Part shown: positions 24,497 through 58,173 of the stretch, one piece after another
Layout of the letters: the number at the start of each line of letters is the position of its first letter
Numbering within the stretch: the stretch's first letter is position 1
Assembly (NCBI RefSeq): GCF_044704955.1
Contig: NC_091992.1
Location: 101,990,001-102,054,000 of the forward strand
Source: Pristiophorus japonicus
Taxonomy: Eukaryota
Direction: 5' to 3'
DNA length: 64,000 bases
Position numbers and translations under genes: made by a program
The notes under the pieces: generated by a model
Databases searched by the model: none
Seen by the model: only the letters and a program-made list of their open reading frames with translations
What the model was told of the DNA's origin: nothing

Positions 24497-27400
24497 ATGG
24501 AGGGAGATAGTGAGAGGAAAGGGGCTAAACCCTAAAAGGGCGAGGTGACCAACGAGGCCTTCGTTAACATAGTAAGTGGCAGGTGGGATAACTTGATACG
24601 GGGTGGGCATGGGAAACTTCCACCCCGTGCATATCGGAAAATATGGGCCGAGATTGCCGATGTCGTAACCGCGGCCTCGAATGAAGTACGTACACCTGAC
24701 CAGTGCAGGTAAAGGTGGAACAGCTTGTTGGCAGAGTAAGTTGCATTTTATATTTTAAATTTTACATATGTAATATTTAAATGTGCATGCAAATTTCAAT
24801 TGGAATCTTGAATGTCATTTCGTTATAGTATTAATTAATTAAATTATTAATTAATTTATGCATCCTAACACTTAGTTGAATTTTATATTATGAAATATTG
24901 TTCATATGCAATGCAATGCAAATTTCTAATCAAACATTTAAATCTGTCAATCTTAAATGTTTATTACAAAGTCCATTAGCTTATGCCATGCAATGTTATC
25001 TTATCATTTCCAGAAGGAGATATCTATCAATCATGCCGAGCAGAGGAGGACGGGCAGCGGCTCTGCTCAGGTGCACATTTTATCGGAATACGAGGAGCTT
25101 GTGGTCGCCATAGTGGGACCTGACAGCTCTTCGGTCATGACCTGTGGTGTGACCGAACCCACCCTTGAGTCTCATGAGTAATGGGAACTGTGCAATGTGT
25201 CAAACATTATTAAAGAAATCTTAAAAATATCTTAGTTATGCATGTAATGTCCTGCAATTATAATGCAATATGATATATACTTTTGATATACTCTTGATTT
25301 ACGAATGAGGTTATGGCAGCCCTGGTGAACCCTTGTGCATATGGGGTATTGAAAAGTATTCTTATATTATGGGTTATTAGAAACATAGAAAATAGGTGCA
25401 GGAGTCGGCCATTCAGCCCTTCTAGCCTGCACCACCATTCAATGAGGTCATGGCTGAACATGCAACTTCAGTACCCCATTCCTGCTTTCTCACCATACCC
25501 CTTGATCCCCCGAGTAGTAAGGACTTCATCTAACTCCCTTTTGAATATATTTAGTGAATTGGCCTCAACTACTTTCTGTGGTAGAGAATTCCACAGGTTC
25601 ACCACTCTCTGGGTGAAGAAGTTTCTCCTCATCTCGATCCTAAATGGCTTACCCCTTATCCTTAGACTGTGACCCCTGGTTCTGGACTTCCCCAACATTG
25701 GGAACATTCTTCCTGCATCTAACCTGTCTAAACCCGTCAGAATTTTAAACGTTTCTATGAGGTCCCCTCTCATTCTTCTGAACTCCAGTGAATACAAGCC
25801 CAGTTGATCCAGTCTTTCTCGATAGGTCAGTCCCACGATCCAGGGAATCAGTCTGGTGAATCTTCGCTGCACTCCCTCAATAGCAAGAATGTCCTTCCTC
25901 AAGTTAGGAGACCAAAACTGTACACAATACTCCAGGTGTGGCCTCACCAAGGCCCTGTACAACTGTAGCAACACCTCCCTGCCCCTGTACTCAAATCCCC
26001 TCGCTGTGAAGACCAACATGCCATTTGCTTTCTTAACCGCCTGCTGTACCTGCATGCCAACCTTCAATGACTGATGTACCATGACACCCAGGTCTCGTTA
26101 CACCTCCCCTTTTCCTAATCTGTCACAATTCAGATAATAGTCTGTCTCTCTGTTTTTACCACCAAAGTGGATAACCTCACATTTATCCACATTATACTTC
26201 ATCTGCCATGCATTTGCCCACTCACCTAACCTATCCAAGTCACTCTGCAGCCTCATAGCATCCTCCTCGCAGCTCACACTGCCACCCAACTTAGTGTCAT
26301 CCGCAAATTTGGAGATACTACATTTAATCCCCTCGTCTAAATCATTAATGTACAATGTAAACAGCTGGGGCCCCAGCATAGAACCTTGCAGTACCCCACT
26401 AGTCACTGCCTGCCATTCTGAAAAGTACCCATTTACTCCTACTCTTTGCTTCCTGTCTGCCAACCAGTTCTCAATCCATGTCAGCACACTACCCCCAATC
26501 CCATGTGCTTTAACTTTGCACATTAATCTCTTGTGTGGGACCTTGTCGAAAGCCTTCTGAAAGTCCAAATATACCACATCAACTGCTTCTCCCTTGTCCA
26601 CTCCACTGGAAACATCCTCAAAAAATTCCAGAAGGTTTATCAAGCATGATTTCCCTTTCACAAATCCATGCTGACTTGGACCTATCATGTCACCATTTTC
26701 AAAATGCACTGCTATGACATCCTTAATAATTGATTCCACCATTTTACCCACTACTGAGGTCAGGCTGACCGGTCTATAATTCCATGTTTTCTCTCTCCCT
26801 CCTTTTTTAAAAAGTGGGGTTACATTGGCTATCCTCCACTCGATAGGAACTGATCCAGAGTCAATGGAATGTTGGAAAATGACTGTCAATGCATCCGCTA
26901 TTTCCAAGGCCACCTCCTTAAGTACTCTGGGATGCAGTCCATCAGGCCCTGGGGATTTATCGGCCTTCAATCCCATCAATTTCCCCAACACAATTTCCCG
27001 ACTAATAAAGATTTCCCTCAGTTCCTCCTCCTTACTAGACCCTCTGACCCCTTTTATATCCGGAAGGTTGTTTGTGTCCTCCTTAGTGAATACCGATATT
27101 GAAAAATTGATATGTATTGATATGTATGTTTACTAATAATGAGCACCCGTTATTATCCTAATAAGTTGTTTAGAAATGTCTTTTTAAGGTCAAGTGTCGT
27201 TAGAATCAGTGGACTCATCCATTCCTCCTGCACCGTCAAATACCTCGCAGGAGGAAGAGGAGGAACAGCTGCCGACTGTGGAGCAAGAGCATGAGGAGGA
27301 GGAGGAGGAAGAGGATGATATTCTTTTTGTGGGAGGGGGACCAACCTGCGGCCATCTCTATTGAGATGGATGAGACACCGGAACCAAGCGGTGTGCAGGT

Positions 27401-33723: not shown

Positions 33724-34709
33724 AATATAGTTGAAATGCAAGGTATTAAGTAGTAAGGAAATAACTTACAACCAAAATTGCAACCCTGAGTTTAATGATG
33801 TCTTAAAAGCTTAGGCCTGCTCACTGCCTCTGCCTATTCAGCATAACAATGTGAATTTTGAAAGCTGGGCCCCAGTGAAGAATCACAGAGGACACCACAA
33901 TATACAGCCAAATATGAGCCTCATATCATCATTAAAAGAGTTTTGAGTCATGCTGAAAAATATACAAGATCTGGATCTTAATTCCCAAATGTTTTTTTTT
34001 GACACTATCAAGACAAACAAAGGCACTTTTCCAAGTGCACATTTTAGAAGTACTCTACGTGATGTTTTACAGATCTAATCATTGCACCCACAAAGTGGCA
34101 AAGTGGTCATCTAGTGTGGCGCTGGTTTTATGTCTTAAATGACGTGAGATTTCTCACGCTCTGCAGAAGCAGTTCACAAACTCAAACATATCTAGTTCAT
34201 CTCGCACAAACCCTTGTATCAGCTGGGGCTGCACCAGAACTATTGCAGTGGAGGCTGAAATTCCACCTTTCATGCAGAGAATTAGATAAAGCTGTTTCTT
34301 TAGCCCATTGCCCAAAGCTTACACAAGCACACCATTTTAAATAGTGCATTTTGTGCAAACAGCAGTTTTCTTTGCAGGCTCTGGCCATAATGATGTTAAA
34401 CTAGTTGTTAACTAATGAGGCACTTAATGGCCATAAATATCCAAAACTGAAATAATTGAGGTAGATTGTGATTTCGGGCGATAGTGAGGTAGTGCATCAA
34501 CAGACCCTTTTACATCGTTCTCAATTTTTATTTCCTTTGACTTCATTGTCAACTCGCTATCGCACAAAGTGATGATCTCCTCATTGTGTGCAACTTTTGT
34601 GTTTAATTTTTTTTTTAAATTTATTCATTGCCAATCTTTCCAATTCTTTGTCAAATCACAAACACCAGAGGTCACCTTGCACACATCAAGGATCACTCTG
34701 CGCCAATGC

Positions 34710-34730
34710 TCTTAGCCAAAAGGCCTAGAA
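34710..34730 (-). pseudogene. U2 snRNA 5'-end fragment placed after the U2 3' end
   Basis: Minus strand TTCTAGGCCTTTTGGCTAAGA versus U2 TTCTCGGCCTTTTGGCTAAGA; 16 nt exact. Confidence 0.75.
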
Positions 34731-34734
34731 CCAC

Positions 34735-34942
34735 TGCACCGTTCCTGGAAGTACTGCAATACCAGGTTCGTGCCATGGAAGTGGATGGATCAGGGCCCCC
34801 CCCACACACTTCCGTGGAGGTGGATGGGTCAGGCCCCCCGAGGTGGAGGTGGAGGTGGAGGTGGAGGTGGAGGTGGAGGTGGAGGTGGAGGTGGAGGTGG
34901 AGGTGGAGGTGGAGAGTCAAGCCACCTCCTATTTCCAAAAAG
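34735..34942 (-). pseudogene. U2 snRNA 3'-half-derived segment, interrupted by local repeats
   Basis: Minus strand ACCTGGTATTGCAGTACTTCCAGGAACGGTGCA differs by one base from the recalled U2 3' end (ACCTGGTATTGCAGTACCTCCAGGAACGGTGCA). The upstream TTTTTGGAAATAGGAG resembles the U2 Sm-site/SL3 region. Confidence 0.85.
34840..34914. repeat. (GGAGGT)n microsatellite, about 12 units
   Basis: Perfect hexamer array read directly. Confidence 0.95.
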
Positions 34943-34944
34943 CA

Positions 34945-35015
34945 TAGGAGAACCACCTTCCTGATCCAGGGAGAACCACTTTGGGGTCATGGTTACTCCC
35001 CTGTCAGGTCAGTTA
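34945..35015 (-). pseudogene. U1 snRNA 5'-derived fragment with partial duplication
   Basis: Minus strand TAACTGACCTGACAGGGGAGTAACCATGACCCCAAAGTGGTTCTCCCTGG then ATCAGGAAGGTGGTTCTCC, versus U1 ATACTTACCTGGCAGGGGAGATACCATGATCACGAAGGTGGTTTTCCCAGG. Confidence 0.7.
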
Positions 35016-36329
35016 CGCATGATCTTAGTGTTTAATGGCTCAGGTGAAAGTTTAAGAATCTCACTATACACTGGCAAGTTGCTGTATGTGTGCAACCCTA
35101 TATCGGCAGCTCTACTCTGCATAAATAAAATGGTCGCATTTATTTCCAACACCAGATCTCTGATTGGTCACCTTGAAGGCAACACCTGATTTCTGATTGG
35201 TCCCTTTGGAGAACAAGACACGCCCAGCCGTTTATCTGAAACTCTTTTGAGTTTATCTGTGAAAACATAAAACATTAAACGGTGCCACCCGACCTGGGTG
35301 ACACTCCAGACATTTACTAGGCCCATTTTTTTTTTTTTTTCCCCTTTTTTGTGTTTTTTTTTTTGTGTTTTTTTCTTTTTTTTTTGTTTTTTTTTGGGCA
35401 CTAAAATCACAATTTTTCCCCAGTGCCCCCTATAAAAGGGAAGGGGACACTAAAAGCACCGGCAATTAAAACAAATTAACTTTAAAACGTAAAATCAAAT
35501 TAAAATTTGGTTGCCGGGCGTGATGATGCACTCCAGTCCCTCCGGTGCCCACCTCTCGCGGAAGGCCGCGAGCGTACCGGTGGACACCGCGTGCTCCATC
35601 TCCAAGGACACCCTGGACCGGATGTAAGAGCGGAAGAGAGGCAGGCAGTCAGGTTGAACGACCCCCTCGACCGCCCGCTGCCTGGACCGGCTGATGGCAC
35701 CCTTGGCCGTGCCCAGGAGCAGTCCTACGAGGAGGCCTTCGGACCTACCTGCTCCCCTCCGCACAGGGTGCCCAAAGATCAGGAGAGTGGGACTGAAGTG
35801 CAGCCAGAATTTCAGGAGCAGCCCCTTCAAATAGTGGAACAGGGGCTGCAACCTTGTGCATTCAATAAAAACATGGAACACGGACTCCTCCAGACCGCAG
35901 AAATTGCAGGCGGCCTGGGAGTCCGTGAACCGGCTTAAAAATTTATTGCACGGCACTGCTCCGTGCACCACCCTCCAGGCCAAGTCCCCGATGAATAGTG
36001 GGAGGACCCCTGCGTAGAGTGCCCTCCATCGGGGACCCCCGCCTCCTCCGGAAGGCAAGATGGTACGCCATGGCGTGTCCGGACGGCCGGCGAGGATGGC
36101 AAAGTTGAGGGTGTGCAGGAGCAGCCCGTACAGGAAACCCCTCCGCGCGGAACTGAAAGGTCCGTTTATCTGAATGTGTAATTAGATCCTGCCTGCCGAA
36201 GTAATCAATTCGTTTGCAAAGTGTAATTCGAGCCATTCTGACTGCCTTGCTCCAGACAACAGAGCTCACATAGAACAGACAGGGCTCACCCTCGCCGGTT
36301 AAGATCTTCTCCCATCCCCCAAACAAGTC

Positions 36330-38000
36330 CCTAAACTTCCTCACACCCCCGAGTTTCTGAACTTTTCCCTCCCCAACAAGTTCCTGAGCTCCTCCGCCCT
36401 CCCAAGTTCCTGACCTTCTCTCCCTGCCAAAGTTCCTGACCTGCCCCGCTCCAACGTTCCTGACCTTCTTCCCTACCCAAGTTCCTTCCCCTCCCTAGGT
36501 TTATGACCTTCTCCCCCCTATACCTTCTTCCCACGTCCCCATCCATAGATGGGGCATTGTATGTGGGTCACAGATAGTTTACAGGTGTTTATTAGGTATG
36601 AAGTGAATAGTGACACATCTGGATTTTGTCCAGTCCATTTGCCACACAAGCAATGAACTTTCCAAGCAATCAATCAGGGTCTAGGGGGAGAACATGGTGC
36701 GGGTGTGAGGGGGTGGGGTTGGAAGAACATGACACGTCTTACAATCTGGATCACATTCTCGCTCTCACCGTCCCCCCCCCCCTTTAGACCTGGATCAAGT
36801 TCTTCCCCCATCCCCACTGTTCTCTCCGTGCTTTTTATCCCCCACTGAGTTCCTGACCTTCTCTCCCCAAGTTCCTGACCTCCTCTCCTCTTCCCCCCGA
36901 TTCTCTCTTGCCCTCCTCCATCTCTATTCCCCTCCTCTCTCTCGTGTTTGCTCTCTCCCTCTCACTCTCTCTCCATTCCTCTCTCCTCCTCCGAACCCCT
37001 TTCTCCCTCCTGCCTCTCTCCCCCTCCTCTCTCTCCCTCTACATCTCCTCTCTCTCCCCTCTCTCTCCCTCTCCTCCTCTCTCTCCCCCCTCTGATCCTG
37101 TCTCTTGCTCCCCCTCCTCTCTCTCCCCCCTCTCACTCCCCCCCATCTTTCTCTCTCTCTCTCTCCCCCTCCGATCGACTCTCTCCTCTCCTCTCCCTTA
37201 CTCTCCCGCACCGATCTCCTCTCTCTCCCCTCATTCTCTCTCCTCCTCCGTTCATCTCTCTCTCCCTGCTCATCTCTCTCTCTCTCTTTCACCTCCAATC
37301 TCCTCTCTCTTCTCCTCCTCCACTCTCTCTCCCGTCTCTTTCCATCTCCAATCCTCTATCTCGTGCCCCTCCGATCTCCCCTCTCTTTCCCTCTCTCTCT
37401 CCCCCCAATCTCCTTTCTCTCTCCCCCTTCCGATCCCCTCTCTCTCTCTCTCTCCCCCTTCCGATCCCCTCTTTCTCTCTTCCCCCTCCGATCGCCTCTC
37501 TCTCCCCCTCTGACCACCTCCCTTTACCCCCTCCGATCTACTCTCTTTCCCACTTTGATCTCCTCTCTCCCCCTCTGATTCCCTCTCTCCCCCTCCGATC
37601 CCCGTTCACCCCCCTCCAATCCCCTCTTTCTCCTTCCTCTGATCTGCTCTCTCTCCCCCTCTGATCTCCTCTCTTCCTCCCCCCACAGATCTCACCTCTC
37701 CCCCCCTTCGATCTCCTCTTTCTCTCCCTCCGATCCCCTCTCTCTCCCCCCTCCGATCCTCTCTCTCTGACCTTCTCGCTCTTCCCCTTCCGATCCCCTC
37801 TCTCCCCTTTCTCTCCCTCTCCAATCTCCCTCCCTCTCCGATCCCCTCTATCTCCCCCCTCTGATCTCCTCTCTCTCCTTCTCCGATCCTCTCTATCTTC
37901 CCCCATGATCTCCTATCTCTCATTTCCAATCCTCCCCTTCCCCGTCAGTTCTCCTCTCTCTCTGTCTCCCCCCTCCAATTGCCCATCTCTTTCCCTTTAC
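36330..38000. repeat. Pyrimidine-rich tandem and low-complexity tracts
   Basis: ~26-bp AAGTTCCTGACCTTCTCCC-like repeats (36340-36540, 36845-36895) and ~1.1 kb of CT-rich degenerate repeat punctuated by CCGATC (36900-38000). ORFs here are compositional artefacts. Confidence 0.9.
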
Positions 38001-53563: not shown

Positions 53564-56500
53564 AAGAACATAAGAACAAAAGAATTAGGAACAGGAGTAG
53601 GCCATCTAGCCCCTCGAGCCTGCTCCGTCATTCAACAAGATCATGATTGATCTGGCTGTGGACTCAGCTCCACTTACCCGCCCGCTCCCCGTAACCCTTA
53701 ATTCCATTATTGGTTAAAAATCTATCTATCTGTACATTCAATGAGCTAGCCTCAACTGCTTCCTTGGGCAGAGAATTCCACAGATTAACAACCCTCTGGG
53801 AGAAGAAATTCCTTCTCAACTCAGTTTTAAATTGGCTCCCCCGTATTTTGAGGCTGTGCCCCCTAGTTCTAGTCTCCCCGACCAGTGGAAACAACCTCTC
53901 TGCCTCTATCTTGTCTATCCCTTTCATTATTTTAAATGTTTCTATAAGATCACCCCTCATCCTTCTGAACTCCAACGAGTAAAGACCCAGTCTACTCAAT
54001 CTATCATCATAAGGTAACGCCCTCATCGCCGGAATCAGCCTAGTGAATCGTCTCTGTAACCCCTCCAAAGCTAGTATATCCTTCCTTAAGTAAGGTGATC
54101 AAAACTGCACGCAGTACTCCAGGTGCGACCTCACCAATACCCTATACAGTTGCAGCAGGACCTCCCTACTTTTGTACTCCATCCCTCTCGCAATGAAGGC
54201 CAACATTCCATTCGCCTTCCTGATTACCTGCTGCACCTGCAAACTAATTTTTTGGGATTCATTGAATGGAGAGAAATTACAACATGCTGTGGTGCAGAGG
54301 GACCTGGGGGTCCATGAAACTCTTTTTTTTTACCAAAAAGAGTTTCATGCACAAGGACCCCCAGGTCCCTCTGCACCACAGCATGTTGTAATTTCTCTCC
54401 ATTCAAATAATATTCCATTTTACTGTTTTTTTTTCCAATGTGGATGACCTCACTTTTTCCGACATTGTATTCCATCTGACAAACCTTAGCCCATTCGCTT
54501 AAGCTATCTAAATCTCATTGCAGGCTCTCTGTATCCTCTACACAACCCGCTTTCCCACTAATCTTTGTGTCATCTGCAAATTTTGTTACACTACACTCTG
54601 TCCCCTCTTCCAAGTCATCTGTGTATATTGTAAACAGTTGTGGTCCCAGCACCGATCCCTGTGGCACACCACGAACCACCGATTTCCAACCCAAAAAGGA
54701 CCCATTTATCCTGACTCTCTGCTTTCTGTTAGCCAGCCAATTCTCGATCCATGCTAATACATTTCCTCTGACTCCGCGTACCTTTATCTTCTGCAGTAAC
54801 CTTTTGTGTGGCACCTTATCGAATGCCTTTTGGAAATCTAAATACTCCACATCCATCAGCACACCTCTATCCACCATGCTCATTACATCCTCAAAGAATT
54901 TCAGTAAATTAGTTAAACATGATTTCCCCTTCATGAATCCATGTTGCGTCTGCTTGATTGCATTATTCCTATCTAGATGTCCCGCTATTTCTTCCTTAAT
55001 GATAGCTTCAAGCATTTTCCCCACTACAGATGTTAAACTAACCAGTCTATAGTTACCTGCCTTTTGTCTGCCCCCTTTTTTAAACAGAGGCGTTACATTA
55101 GCTGCTTTCCAATCTGCTGGTACCTCCCCAGAGTCCAGAGAATTTTGGTAGATTATAACGAACGCATCTGCTATAACTTCCGCCATCTCTTTTAATACCC
55201 TGGGATGCATTTCATCAAGACCAGGGGACTTGTCTACCTTGAGTCCCATTAGCCTGTCCAGCACTACCCCCCTAGTGATAGTGATTGTCTCAAGGTCCTC
55301 CCTTCCCACATTCCTGTGACCAGCAATTTTTGGCATGGTTTTTGTGTCTTCCACTGTGAAGACCGAAGCAAAATAATTGTTTAAGGTCTCAGCCATTTCC
55401 ACATTTCCCATTATTAAATCCCCCTTCTCACCTTCTAAGGGACCAACATTTACTTTAGTCACTCTTTTCCGTTTTATATATCGGTAAAAGGTTTTACTAT
55501 CTGTTTTTATGTTTTGCGCAAGTTTACTTTCGTAATCTATCTTTCCTTTCTTTATTGCTTTTTTAGTCATTCTTTGCTGCTATTTAAAATTGTCCCAATC
55601 TTCTAGTTTCCCACTAACCTTGGCCATCTTATACGCATTGGTTTTTAATTTGATACTCTCCTTTATTTCCTTGGTTATCCACGGCTGGTTATCCCTTCTC
55701 TTACCGCCCTTCTTTTTCACTGGAATATATTTTTGTTGAGCACTATGAAAGAGCTCCTTAAAAGTCCTCCACTGTTCCTCAATTGTGCCACCGTTTAGTC
55801 TGTGTTCCCAGTCTACTTTAGCCAACTCTGCCCTCATCCCACTGTAGTCCCCTTTGTTTAAGCATAGTACACTCGTTTGAGACACTACTTCCTCACCCTC
55901 AATCTGTATTACAAATTCAACCATACTGTGATCACTCATTCCGAAAGGATCTTTTACCAGGAGATAATTTATTATTCTTGTCTCATTACACAGGACCAGA
56001 TCTAAGATAGCTTGCTCCCTTGTAGGTTCTGTAACATGCTGTTCTAAGAAACAATCCCGTATGCATTCTATGAATTCCTCCTCAAGGCTACCCCGTGCGA
56101 TTTGATTTGACCAATCGATATGTAGGTTAAAATCTCCCATGATTACTGCCGTTCCTTTTTCACATACCTCCATTATTCCCTTGATTATTGCCCGCCCCAC
56201 CGTGAAGTTATTATTTGGGGGCCTATAAACTACGCCCACCAGTGACTTTTTCCCCTTACTATCTTAATCTCCACCCACAATGATTCAACATTTTGTTCAT
56301 TAGAGCCAATATCATCTCTCACAACTGCCCTGATATCATCCTTTATTAACAGAGCTACCCCATCTCCTTTCCCTTCTTGTCTATCTTTCTGAATTGTCAG
56401 ATACCCCTGTATGTTTAATTCCCAGTCTTGGCCACCCTGCAACCATGTTTCTGTTATGGCCACCAAATCATACCCATTTGTGATGATTTGTGCCGTCAAC

Positions 56501-58173
56501 TCATTTACTTTATTTCGAATGCTGTGTGCATTTAGGTAGAGTGTTTTAATACTAGTTTTTAAACCATGATTTTTAGTTTTGACCCCTCCTGCAGCCCCTT
56601 TATATTCATACATATTGTCCCTTCCTATCACCTTGTGGCTTTCACTTAGCCCAGTGCTACTCTGCTTTATTGCCTCCTGCCTTTTGCATTCTTTTTTGAG
56701 GTCCTGTTCATCTGAGCTCTCACCCACTCTAACTAGCTCAGAGCCCTCTCCTGGGTTCCAAATACTCCTCGCATTGAGGCACTGAGCTTTCATGCTTGCC
56801 TTTTTATTACACTTTGACCCTTTAGAATTTTGCTGTACAGTGGCCCTTTTTGTTTTTTGCCTTGGGTTTCTCTGCCCTCCACTTTTACTCATCACCTTTC
56901 TGTCTTTTGCTTCTGTCTCCATTTTGTTTCCCTCTGTCTCCCTGCATTGGTTCCCATCCCCCTGCCATATTAGTTTAACTCCTCCCCAACAGCACTAGCA
57001 AACACTCCCCCTAGGGCATTGGTTCCGGTCCTGCCCAGGTGCAGACCGTCCGGTTTGTACTGGTCCCACCTCCCCCAGAACCGGTTCCAATGCCCCAGGA
57101 ATTTGAATCCCTCCCTGCTGCACCACTGCTCAAGCCACGTATTCATCTGAGCTATCCTGCGATTCCTACTCTGACTAGCACGTGGCACTGGTAGCAATCC
57201 CGAGATTACTACTTTTGAGGTCCTACTTTTTAATTTAGCTCCTAGCTCCTTAAATTCTTCTCGTAGGACCTCATCCCTTTTTTTTACCTATATCGTTGGT
57301 ACCAATGTGCACCACGACAACTGGCTGTTCACCCTCCCTTTTCAGAATGTCCTGCACCCGCTCCGAGACATCCTTGACCCTTGCACCAGGGAGGCAACAT
57401 ACCATCCTGGAGTCTCGGTTGCGGCCGCAGAAATGCCTATCTATTCCCCTTACAATTGAATCCCCTATCACTATCACTCTGCCACTCTTTTTCCTGCCCT
57501 CCTGTGCAACAGTGCCAGCCACGATGCCATGAACTTGACTGCTGCTGCCCTCCCCTGATGATTCATCCCCGTCAACAGTACTCAAAGCGGTGTATCTGTT
57601 TTGCAGACGGGTGACCACAGGGAACCCCTGCACTACCTTCCTTGCACTGCTCTTCCTGCTGGCGTTCCATTCCCTATCTGGCTGTGGACCCTTCACCTGC
57701 GGTAAGACCAACTCACTAAACGTCCTACTCACGTCATTCTCAGCATCGTGGATGCTCCAGAGTGAATCCACCCTCAGCTCCAATCCCGCAACGCGGACCG
57801 TCAGGAGCCGGATGTGGACACACTTCCCGCACATGTAGTCGTCAGGGACACCGGAAGTGTCCCTGAGTTCCCACATGGTACAGGAGGAGCATATTACGTG
57901 ACCGAGCTCTCCTGCATGACTTAACCCTTAGATACACTTAAATTGGCAACAACAATGCTAAAGCTTACTCACTGATATAGAAGAGAAAAAAGAAAAACTA
58001 CTCACCAATCATCAGCCAAACACTTACCCCCTTGGCTGTGACGTCACCTTTCTATTCCTTTCTACTTCTTTTTTTCCTTCTCCCTGTAGCTGCACAAGCC
58101 ACGCCTCTCCACGCACCTCCCGACCTTTTATAGGCCTCACCAACAGACTCATGCTGCTCCCGGCTCAGCGACC
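53564..58173 (-). mobile_element. Full-length CR1 LINE nested in the Gypsy pol
   Basis: ORF1 (~57917-56970) with zinc finger and SGNH esterase (IGDSIVR, CLPGA, HIGTND, DGLHL). ORF2 (56922-53664) with AP endonuclease (YLNAHSI, ITETWL, MGDFN, SDH) and RT, frameshifted. Splits the host TKRDPV|MSKVY, with TAT at both junctions. Confidence 0.97.

Follow-up and report, generated by a model that had tools for sequence, protein, structure and literature searches.

The window analysed here is a 64,000-nucleotide stretch of the Pristiophorus japonicus genome (contig NC_091992.1, positions 101,990,001 to 102,054,000 of the forward strand). On its minus strand, downstream of the remnant of a Tx1 ORF2, lies a polyadenylated mosaic of U1 and U2 snRNA pieces, and the question raised by this locus is what the mosaic is and how it came to be there. 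A sequence-only reading had offered two options: a Tx1 family whose 3' UTR holds pieces of its snRNA targets, or an snRNA-derived SINE mobilised by a Tx1 element. The pieces were identified by aligning the locus with the U1 and U2 genes of the same genome, and the features are collected in Table 1.

Table 1. Features of the SINE copy in the window and of the neighbouring LINE piece, in window positions. Fractions are identical positions; shuffle counts are the shuffled sequences that aligned as well.
Feature	Position	Strand	Remarks
Neighbouring LINE TSD, 13 bp	36174-36162 and 35240-35228		
Neighbouring 5'-truncated LINE piece (ORF2 C-terminus)	35241..36161	-	Outside the SINE
5' copy of 9-bp SINE TSD	35028..35036	-	
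U2-derived head remnant (U2 nt 21-35)	35014..35028	-	Copy 5'-truncated by about 20 nt
U1 nt 3-57-derived segment	34960..35013	-	Own U1, 45/55; shuffles 0/300; stem I kept, splice-site-pairing end changed
U1 nt 35-47 partial duplication	34947..34959	-	Own U1, 13/13; on its own reached by 17/300 shuffles
U-run from U2 Sm site	34935..34942	-	Without leading A
U2 3'-half-derived body	34734..34944	-	Stem-loop III duplicated, stem-loop IV and its loop kept; U2 97-156 (first stem-loop III copy) at 34944-34889, 41/61, shuffles 5/300, weaker alone; U2 124-186 at 34798-34734, 53/65, shuffles 0/300
CCACCT microsatellite expansion, 72 nt	34841..34912	-	This copy only; missing at the 29 other loci aligned
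Second U2 5' piece (U2 nt 6-29, stem-loop I)	34707..34730	-	22/24; shuffles 0/300
Family tail, about 88 nt	34617..34706	-	Homologous to sister family B tail, not to Keno 3' UTR
AATAAA	34625-34620	-	Inside family tail
Poly(A) tail	34608..34616	-	
3' copy of 9-bp SINE TSD	34599..34607	-	

The U1 and U2 pieces were found at roughly the positions first read, the main ones (U1 3-57, U2 124-186 and U2 6-29) scoring better than all 300 shuffles, and the partial duplication noticed in the U1 piece was also confirmed. U1 is not the first piece, as had been thought; the U2 head remnant in front of it and the 9-bp target site duplication (TSD) had been missed. There is indeed a second U2 5' piece downstream, but the permuted order of the U2 parts is only apparent, because the copy is 5'-truncated and carries this second piece, and the element itself starts with U2. 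Rfam gave no match at gathering score over the whole window; on 34550-35550 its sole hit was a U2 7-26 fragment (17.8 bits, E=0.49), whereas the main pieces were significant in the alignments to the genome's own genes. All 11 of the 11 stem I pairs are retained in the U1-derived segment. The missing A before the U-run makes an Sm-binding role, which had been suggested, doubtful for the subfamily of this copy, A1.

The neighbouring LINE piece gave a zf-RVT match (E=1e-5) under the cut-off. It is flanked by its own TSD, and 191 bp of target DNA separates its insertion from that of the SINE. The shared strand and short spacing in the window speak for the first option, in which the upstream Tx1 family carries the cassette as its 3' UTR, but the two independent TSD pairs refute it, and its probability is vanishingly small. 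Only 2 of 92 sampled SINE copies have any similar Tx1 piece upstream, 491-700 bp away and diverged (77-83% identity). A DNA search of the 5.9-Gb genome, with 40 of 2,261 candidates scored, returned matches from query base 303 onward, bases 1-302 matching the window itself alone. Constant linkage to a Tx1 ORF2 likewise did not hold up: among 100 listed ends of the neighbouring Tx1 family (26,890 exact motif matches in the genome), none lay within 2 kb of 27 SINE positions in the same 28 Mb. The adjacency of SINE and Tx1 in the window fits chance. Copies of this LINE family listed on contig C1 include tandem runs with a spacing of about 7.2 kb. Elsewhere in the window, an unnamed repeat at 36176-36800 recurs near three SINE copies (L097, L238 and L243; 72-80% identity), a GA-rich low-complexity stretch of about 1.2 kb occupies 36800-38000 on the minus strand, and further LINE remnants at 26101-27129 and 54518-56994 hold RT frames (PF00078) and one endonuclease frame.

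Exact-motif counts, which are lower bounds on copy number, gave 5,457 genome-wide matches to the tail and 2,300 to the U2/U1 head junction, with none for the controls. With at least 5,457 exact tail matches a single-copy scramble is ruled out, and what had been taken for some 85 nt of unique sequence is a tail common to the whole family. The consensus (348 nt, built from 37 aligned pieces) runs in the order U2 1-35, U1 3-57, U1 35-47, U2 97-141, U2 109-186, U2 7-29, tail and poly(A), its U2 1-35 head being identical to U2 at 33 of 35 positions (0/300 shuffles as good). The window copy matches it at 319 of 328 aligned positions, and window 35028-34922 equals consensus 21-127 throughout (107/107). 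From the 5,457 tail matches the first 92 were taken as a sample, all on contig C1 between 0 and 115 Mb; their identity to the consensus had a median of 97.4%, TSDs of 7-23 nt were called in 61 copies, and 25 stood in tandem with another copy. The window copy has both AATAAA and poly(A), as had been read, but AATAAA is present in just 20 of the 92. That the cassette belongs to a family is practically certain. This poly(A) retroposon family is young and dispersed, shows TSDs and 5'-truncated copies, and is divided into subfamilies. Reverse transcriptases are known to switch template to snRNAs (see PMC4494074), and such switching probably built the element. A mere sum of independent template-switched chimeric snRNA retropseudogenes, with no self-propagating family, is nevertheless extremely improbable and is refuted by the shared junctions: thousands of copies have the same junctions, deletions and diagnostic bases, and the copies form nested subfamilies.

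The family of the window copy, family A, has a sister family B (359 exact junction matches) with near full-length U2 (154/179) and a second U2 5' piece, and the tails of the two are homologous (0/500 shuffles as good). The 5' snRNA part has been swapped recurrently, B having near full-length U2 and A having U1 in place of U2 36-96; B would be the older layout, from which A arose through this replacement. Copies of B (L073, L080, L289-L308) show a short internal deletion in U2, the homologous tail and poly(A), and at 6 of 20 B loci a family A copy was seen just upstream; further U2-like variants were seen at L170, L172 and L303. Within family A, A1 is the largest subfamily, and A2 (465 head matches) has a remodelled U1 part. 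At six loci (L172, L176, L201, L204, L269 and L312) the family A body has a U2 head that extends further, to nt 44-57, and that replaces or precedes the U1 part, a sign of repeated head swaps. In tandem pairs (L092, L096 and L100) the TSD of the upstream copy takes in the first bases of the head of the downstream copy, so the earlier copy's 5' TSD is where the later copy went in. By eye, the order truncated-then-full seemed commoner than the reverse.

Exact junctions of poly(A) with U2 nt 39 numbered 94, against none for the control. Among the first 20, family A ends accounted for 19 and a family B end for one; 3 were in true U2 genes and 17 in B-type copies. Six of the 17 B-type junctions (L180-L185) come from one duplicated region, and the U2 site is duplicated upstream in 6 of the 17, which is the mark of separate site-specific insertions. 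According to section 6 of PMC4640811, the 3' flank of Utopia and Keno begins at the same U2 nucleotide, 39, and in P. japonicus a LINE with an APE endonuclease is present at that site. This intact 5.7-kb LINE sits in a U2 array with a 760-bp unit. Its ORF1 frame of 581 codons has zinc knuckles and ZCCHC3-type domains, its ORF2 frame of 1147 codons has APE (PF03372), RT (PF00078) and zf-RVT (PF13966) domains, all above cut-off, and it carries its own U2 1-44-like head, just behind which stands what we take to be an octamer-like motif. It is 35% identical to the neighbouring Tx1 over 63 aa. The LINE is also dispersed, with 236 motif matches across chromosomes, and none of 30 sampled dispersed loci was in a U2 gene. 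Because it is not strictly U2-specific it is called Keno-type here and is not placed as a member of Keno. Intact loci are L192 (G000:C1003), L189 and L190 (both G000:C19). At L192, U2 1-53 and an unrelated insert of 35 bp stand in front of the LINE, and at L273 the 3' flank of a Keno copy is the U2-like head of another, entered at the position equivalent to nt 39.

The targets seen for the SINE are U2 and sites within several other repeats, and several of these are shared with the Keno-type LINE. Out of 22 Keno-type loci with a callable non-SINE flank, 4 had an exact off-target site in common with the SINE, meaning the same base in another repeat, whereas four shifted controls gave 0/22 each; 7 of 30 Keno-type loci were in tandem with SINE copies (A or B). 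Among the SINE copies themselves, site sharing was seen in 16 of 99 cases (controls 0, 1 and 0). The SINE tail and the Keno-type 3' UTR showed no homology (221 of 300 shuffles as good), so the assignment of a partner rests on target sharing. The Keno-type LINE is thus very likely what drives the SINE. A division of labour, in which the Keno-type LINE makes the on-target copies and the thousands of dispersed ones, that of the window among them, are moved by some other LINE of the poly(A) type, for instance the neighbouring Tx1, could draw on the far greater number of neighbour-family motif matches (26,890 against 236) and on the fact that a poly(A) RNA without a shared tail is usable by any relaxed LINE. 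It is improbable, in that dispersed Keno-type copies themselves share exact sites and tandem arrays with the SINE and none of the 100 listed ends of the neighbouring family comes within 2 kb of it. Of the two original options, the snRNA-derived SINE moved by a Tx1 is the one supported, with the Keno-type Tx1 as its likely driver and not the neighbouring family.

The U2 arrays hold candidate source genes of the SINE. A census of 51 units in 8 array stretches counted 33 intact U2 genes, 13 SINE units and 5 Keno-type LINE units; the stretches were picked for holding junctions, and 13/51 overstates occupancy. Each SINE unit consists of U2 upstream DNA (100% identical to that of intact units), A2 from +1, an A-tract and U2 39-191. 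The same +1 fusion of A2 occurs at L188 behind a second U2 flank type, so that both cluster types show it. The clusters were observed to be of two kinds, one with the 760-bp tandem unit and GTT/GAT microsatellites and one of copies spaced 14-43 kb apart, which are followed by Keno, B and U2 debris; they lie at G000:C1003, C19:69.6-69.7 Mb, C1832, C1868, C4309 and C9:111-113.8 Mb. The U2 flanks are assumed to function as promoters, given that each of the 48 U2 matches scored, which lie on the few contigs holding these clusters, was full-length and that the six flanks inspected were of these two types. No octamer was found within 330 bp of either flank type, even with one mismatch; three U1 genes had an octamer match at about -205.

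A motif of the array-type allele had 29 matches, 18 in arrays and 11 dispersed. Ten of the 11 dispersed copies were examined: seven had no differences from an array copy, two had one and one had eleven, and in all ten both U2 upstream DNA and U2 39 onward after the poly(A) were absent. That array and dispersed copies are identical is not enough to tell which gave rise to which. The array copies could be sinks, the SINE being transcribed elsewhere (by read-through from host genes or other repeats, from an unrecognised internal promoter or from an unassembled locus) and the active allele being dropped into U2 genes by the Keno-type LINE and amplified there by array turnover. Such an origin would suit A1, the largest subfamily, in which none of 12 candidates was promoter-linked (searched with the two U2 flank types found and the exact head); the single A1 copy preceding a true U2 3' part had no U2 upstream DNA within about 7 kb. 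It would also suit the A2-headed copies, of which 7 of 30 sampled were within 3 nt of an array copy and the other 23 differed at 9 or more positions, forming sub-lineages for which no array source was found. Transcription from flanking sequence has, moreover, been proposed for crocodilian SINEU-2 (PMC4494074). We nevertheless consider sinks rather unlikely. A derived two-base variant was matched 16 times in arrays and twice among dispersed copies, each of the two having a slight 5' truncation. Full-length copies stop at the U2 +1, and 35 distinct +1-starting copies outside the arrays had no common 5' extension, unlike SINEU-2, for which extensions are reported (PMC4494074). No match to Pol III A or B boxes was found in A1 or A2 with simple patterns. 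The sequence evidence makes the U2 promoter the likely source of A2 transcription, and for A1 it is favoured by a narrow balance.

One A1 copy and one A2 copy were predicted to fold much more stably than shuffled sequences (z = -5.1 and z = -6.4, respectively). The first stem-loop III copy forms a 13-bp hairpin of -27.9 kcal/mol, compared with -14.8 in U2; 11 of the 13 U2 pairs are kept and 2 broken, and since there is no double-sided change among them the predicted change amounts to stabilisation, which falls short of proof of covariation. The motifs for pairing with the branch point and the splice site are lost in both A1 and A2, loop IV is retained in both, and each has three internal T-runs. 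Full-length A1-type copies have no canonical Sm site, whereas the array allele, an A2, has one upstream of intact U2 stem-loops III-IV, and its RNA may be capped and packaged like an snRNP. The 5' ends of the 92 sampled copies were bimodal, 46 falling at consensus 1-27 and 35 at 108-129, with 4 at 59-97, 5 at 154-171 (most of these at the equivalent hairpin base of the second copy) and 2 beyond 250. Truncated ends were thus concentrated, 35 of 46 in 22 of about 290 positions (p = 4e-30), in a hot spot that has the U-run on one side and the G-rich hairpin on the other. Its cause may be a trimmed RNA species, a block of the RT by bound protein or a shorter source. An Sm ring was considered and set aside, as the hot spot is also found with A1-type tails and full-length A1 lacks a canonical Sm site.

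These observations suggest a life cycle, drawn from sequence comparison, in which the SINE is probably mobilised in trans by the Keno-type LINE, and a copy that inserts into a U2 gene would turn into a source under the control of the external U2 promoter. snRNA-gene transcription and target-primed reverse transcription, as generally known, are the basis of the mechanism. The external promoter would fire at +1 and make SINE RNA, which Keno ORF2p would pick up in trans by its A-tract, without a shared tail, and prime there, so that a poly(A) signal would not be needed. Most insertions would be off target and remain silent dead ends, as in the window. When, rarely, a copy entered a U2 gene and its U2-identical head joined it there in register, a new source gene would result, which array turnover would then amplify or remove; the A1 source would now be lost, unassembled or behind a flank type outside the query. 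Taken as a whole, the best explanation of the window copy, and a reasonably probable one, is that it landed off target and is a dead end, the copy of an snRNA-derived SINE that has no promoter of its own and lives as a parasite of a Keno-type Tx1 targeting U2.

The element resembles SINEU of crocodilians as described in PMC4494074. Like SINEU-1, -2 and -3 it has a U1/U2-derived head, a length under 500 nt, poly(A) and TSDs; likenesses also extend to recurrent addition of snRNA pieces, a U1 piece that is partly duplicated within itself, a TSD enclosed between tandem copies, oligo-T runs inside the element, the absence of a LINE-shared tail and a Keno-related Tx1 as mover, judged here by shared targets. 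The targets observed for it are U2 nt 38|39 and, in a relaxed manner, sites elsewhere, that of SINEU being Mariner-N4_AMi, and +1 copies at real U2 genes are present here, none being reported for SINEU in that paper. The element is classed as SINEU-like and not as one of the named crocodilian families, SINEU being compared by description and not by sequence. In contrast to Keno it is a non-coding passenger, and its partner LINE has many dispersed copies and its own U2-like head.

The R2 and R2/R1 SIDEs of Drosophila rDNA (PMC3414825) are also non-autonomous, site-specific passengers of a multicopy RNA gene; they rely on host-gene transcription and a resident LINE, which is a precedent for promoter borrowing. 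SIDEs are derived from LINE ends and excise themselves by ribozyme, whereas no LINE-derived part was found in the SINE, which would also start at the gene's own +1 and has thousands of off-target sites. By analogy it would function like an R2 SIDE passenger, yet it is no member of that group, its tail showing no homology to the 3' UTR of the partner LINE. Alu likewise has a small-RNA-derived body moved by L1 via an A-tract without tail homology, with few sources and many dead copies; it has an internal Pol III promoter, whereas none was found in the SINE.

SINEU transcription is called an open question in PMC4494074, as the U1/U2 promoters lie outside the copied RNA, and a 2017 review (PMC5381603), in the passages covered, mentions SINEU for crocodilians only. 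A literature search over titles and the starts of abstracts, with subscription journals mostly outside its coverage, found no report of SINEU beyond crocodilians, of a SINE partner for Keno or of a U2-promoter SINE. The findings put candidate SINEU-type source genes in hand, as defined alleles that are fused to U2 genes at +1 and have exact counterparts among the dispersed copies, so that the stated question becomes testable. With them the range of snRNA-headed SINEs would reach past crocodilians, a Keno-type LINE would gain a SINE partner, and two parasites would be seen to share one site in a U2 array that the host cannot do without. It is slightly the better bet that a promoter-less SINE here renews its sources by homing into U2 genes in register with +1, the U2-identical head serving as the 5' joint and Keno site specificity as the address, and this may be a general answer for SINEU. 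If true, array turnover would explain both the successive bursts of subfamilies and the older subfamilies left without a source.
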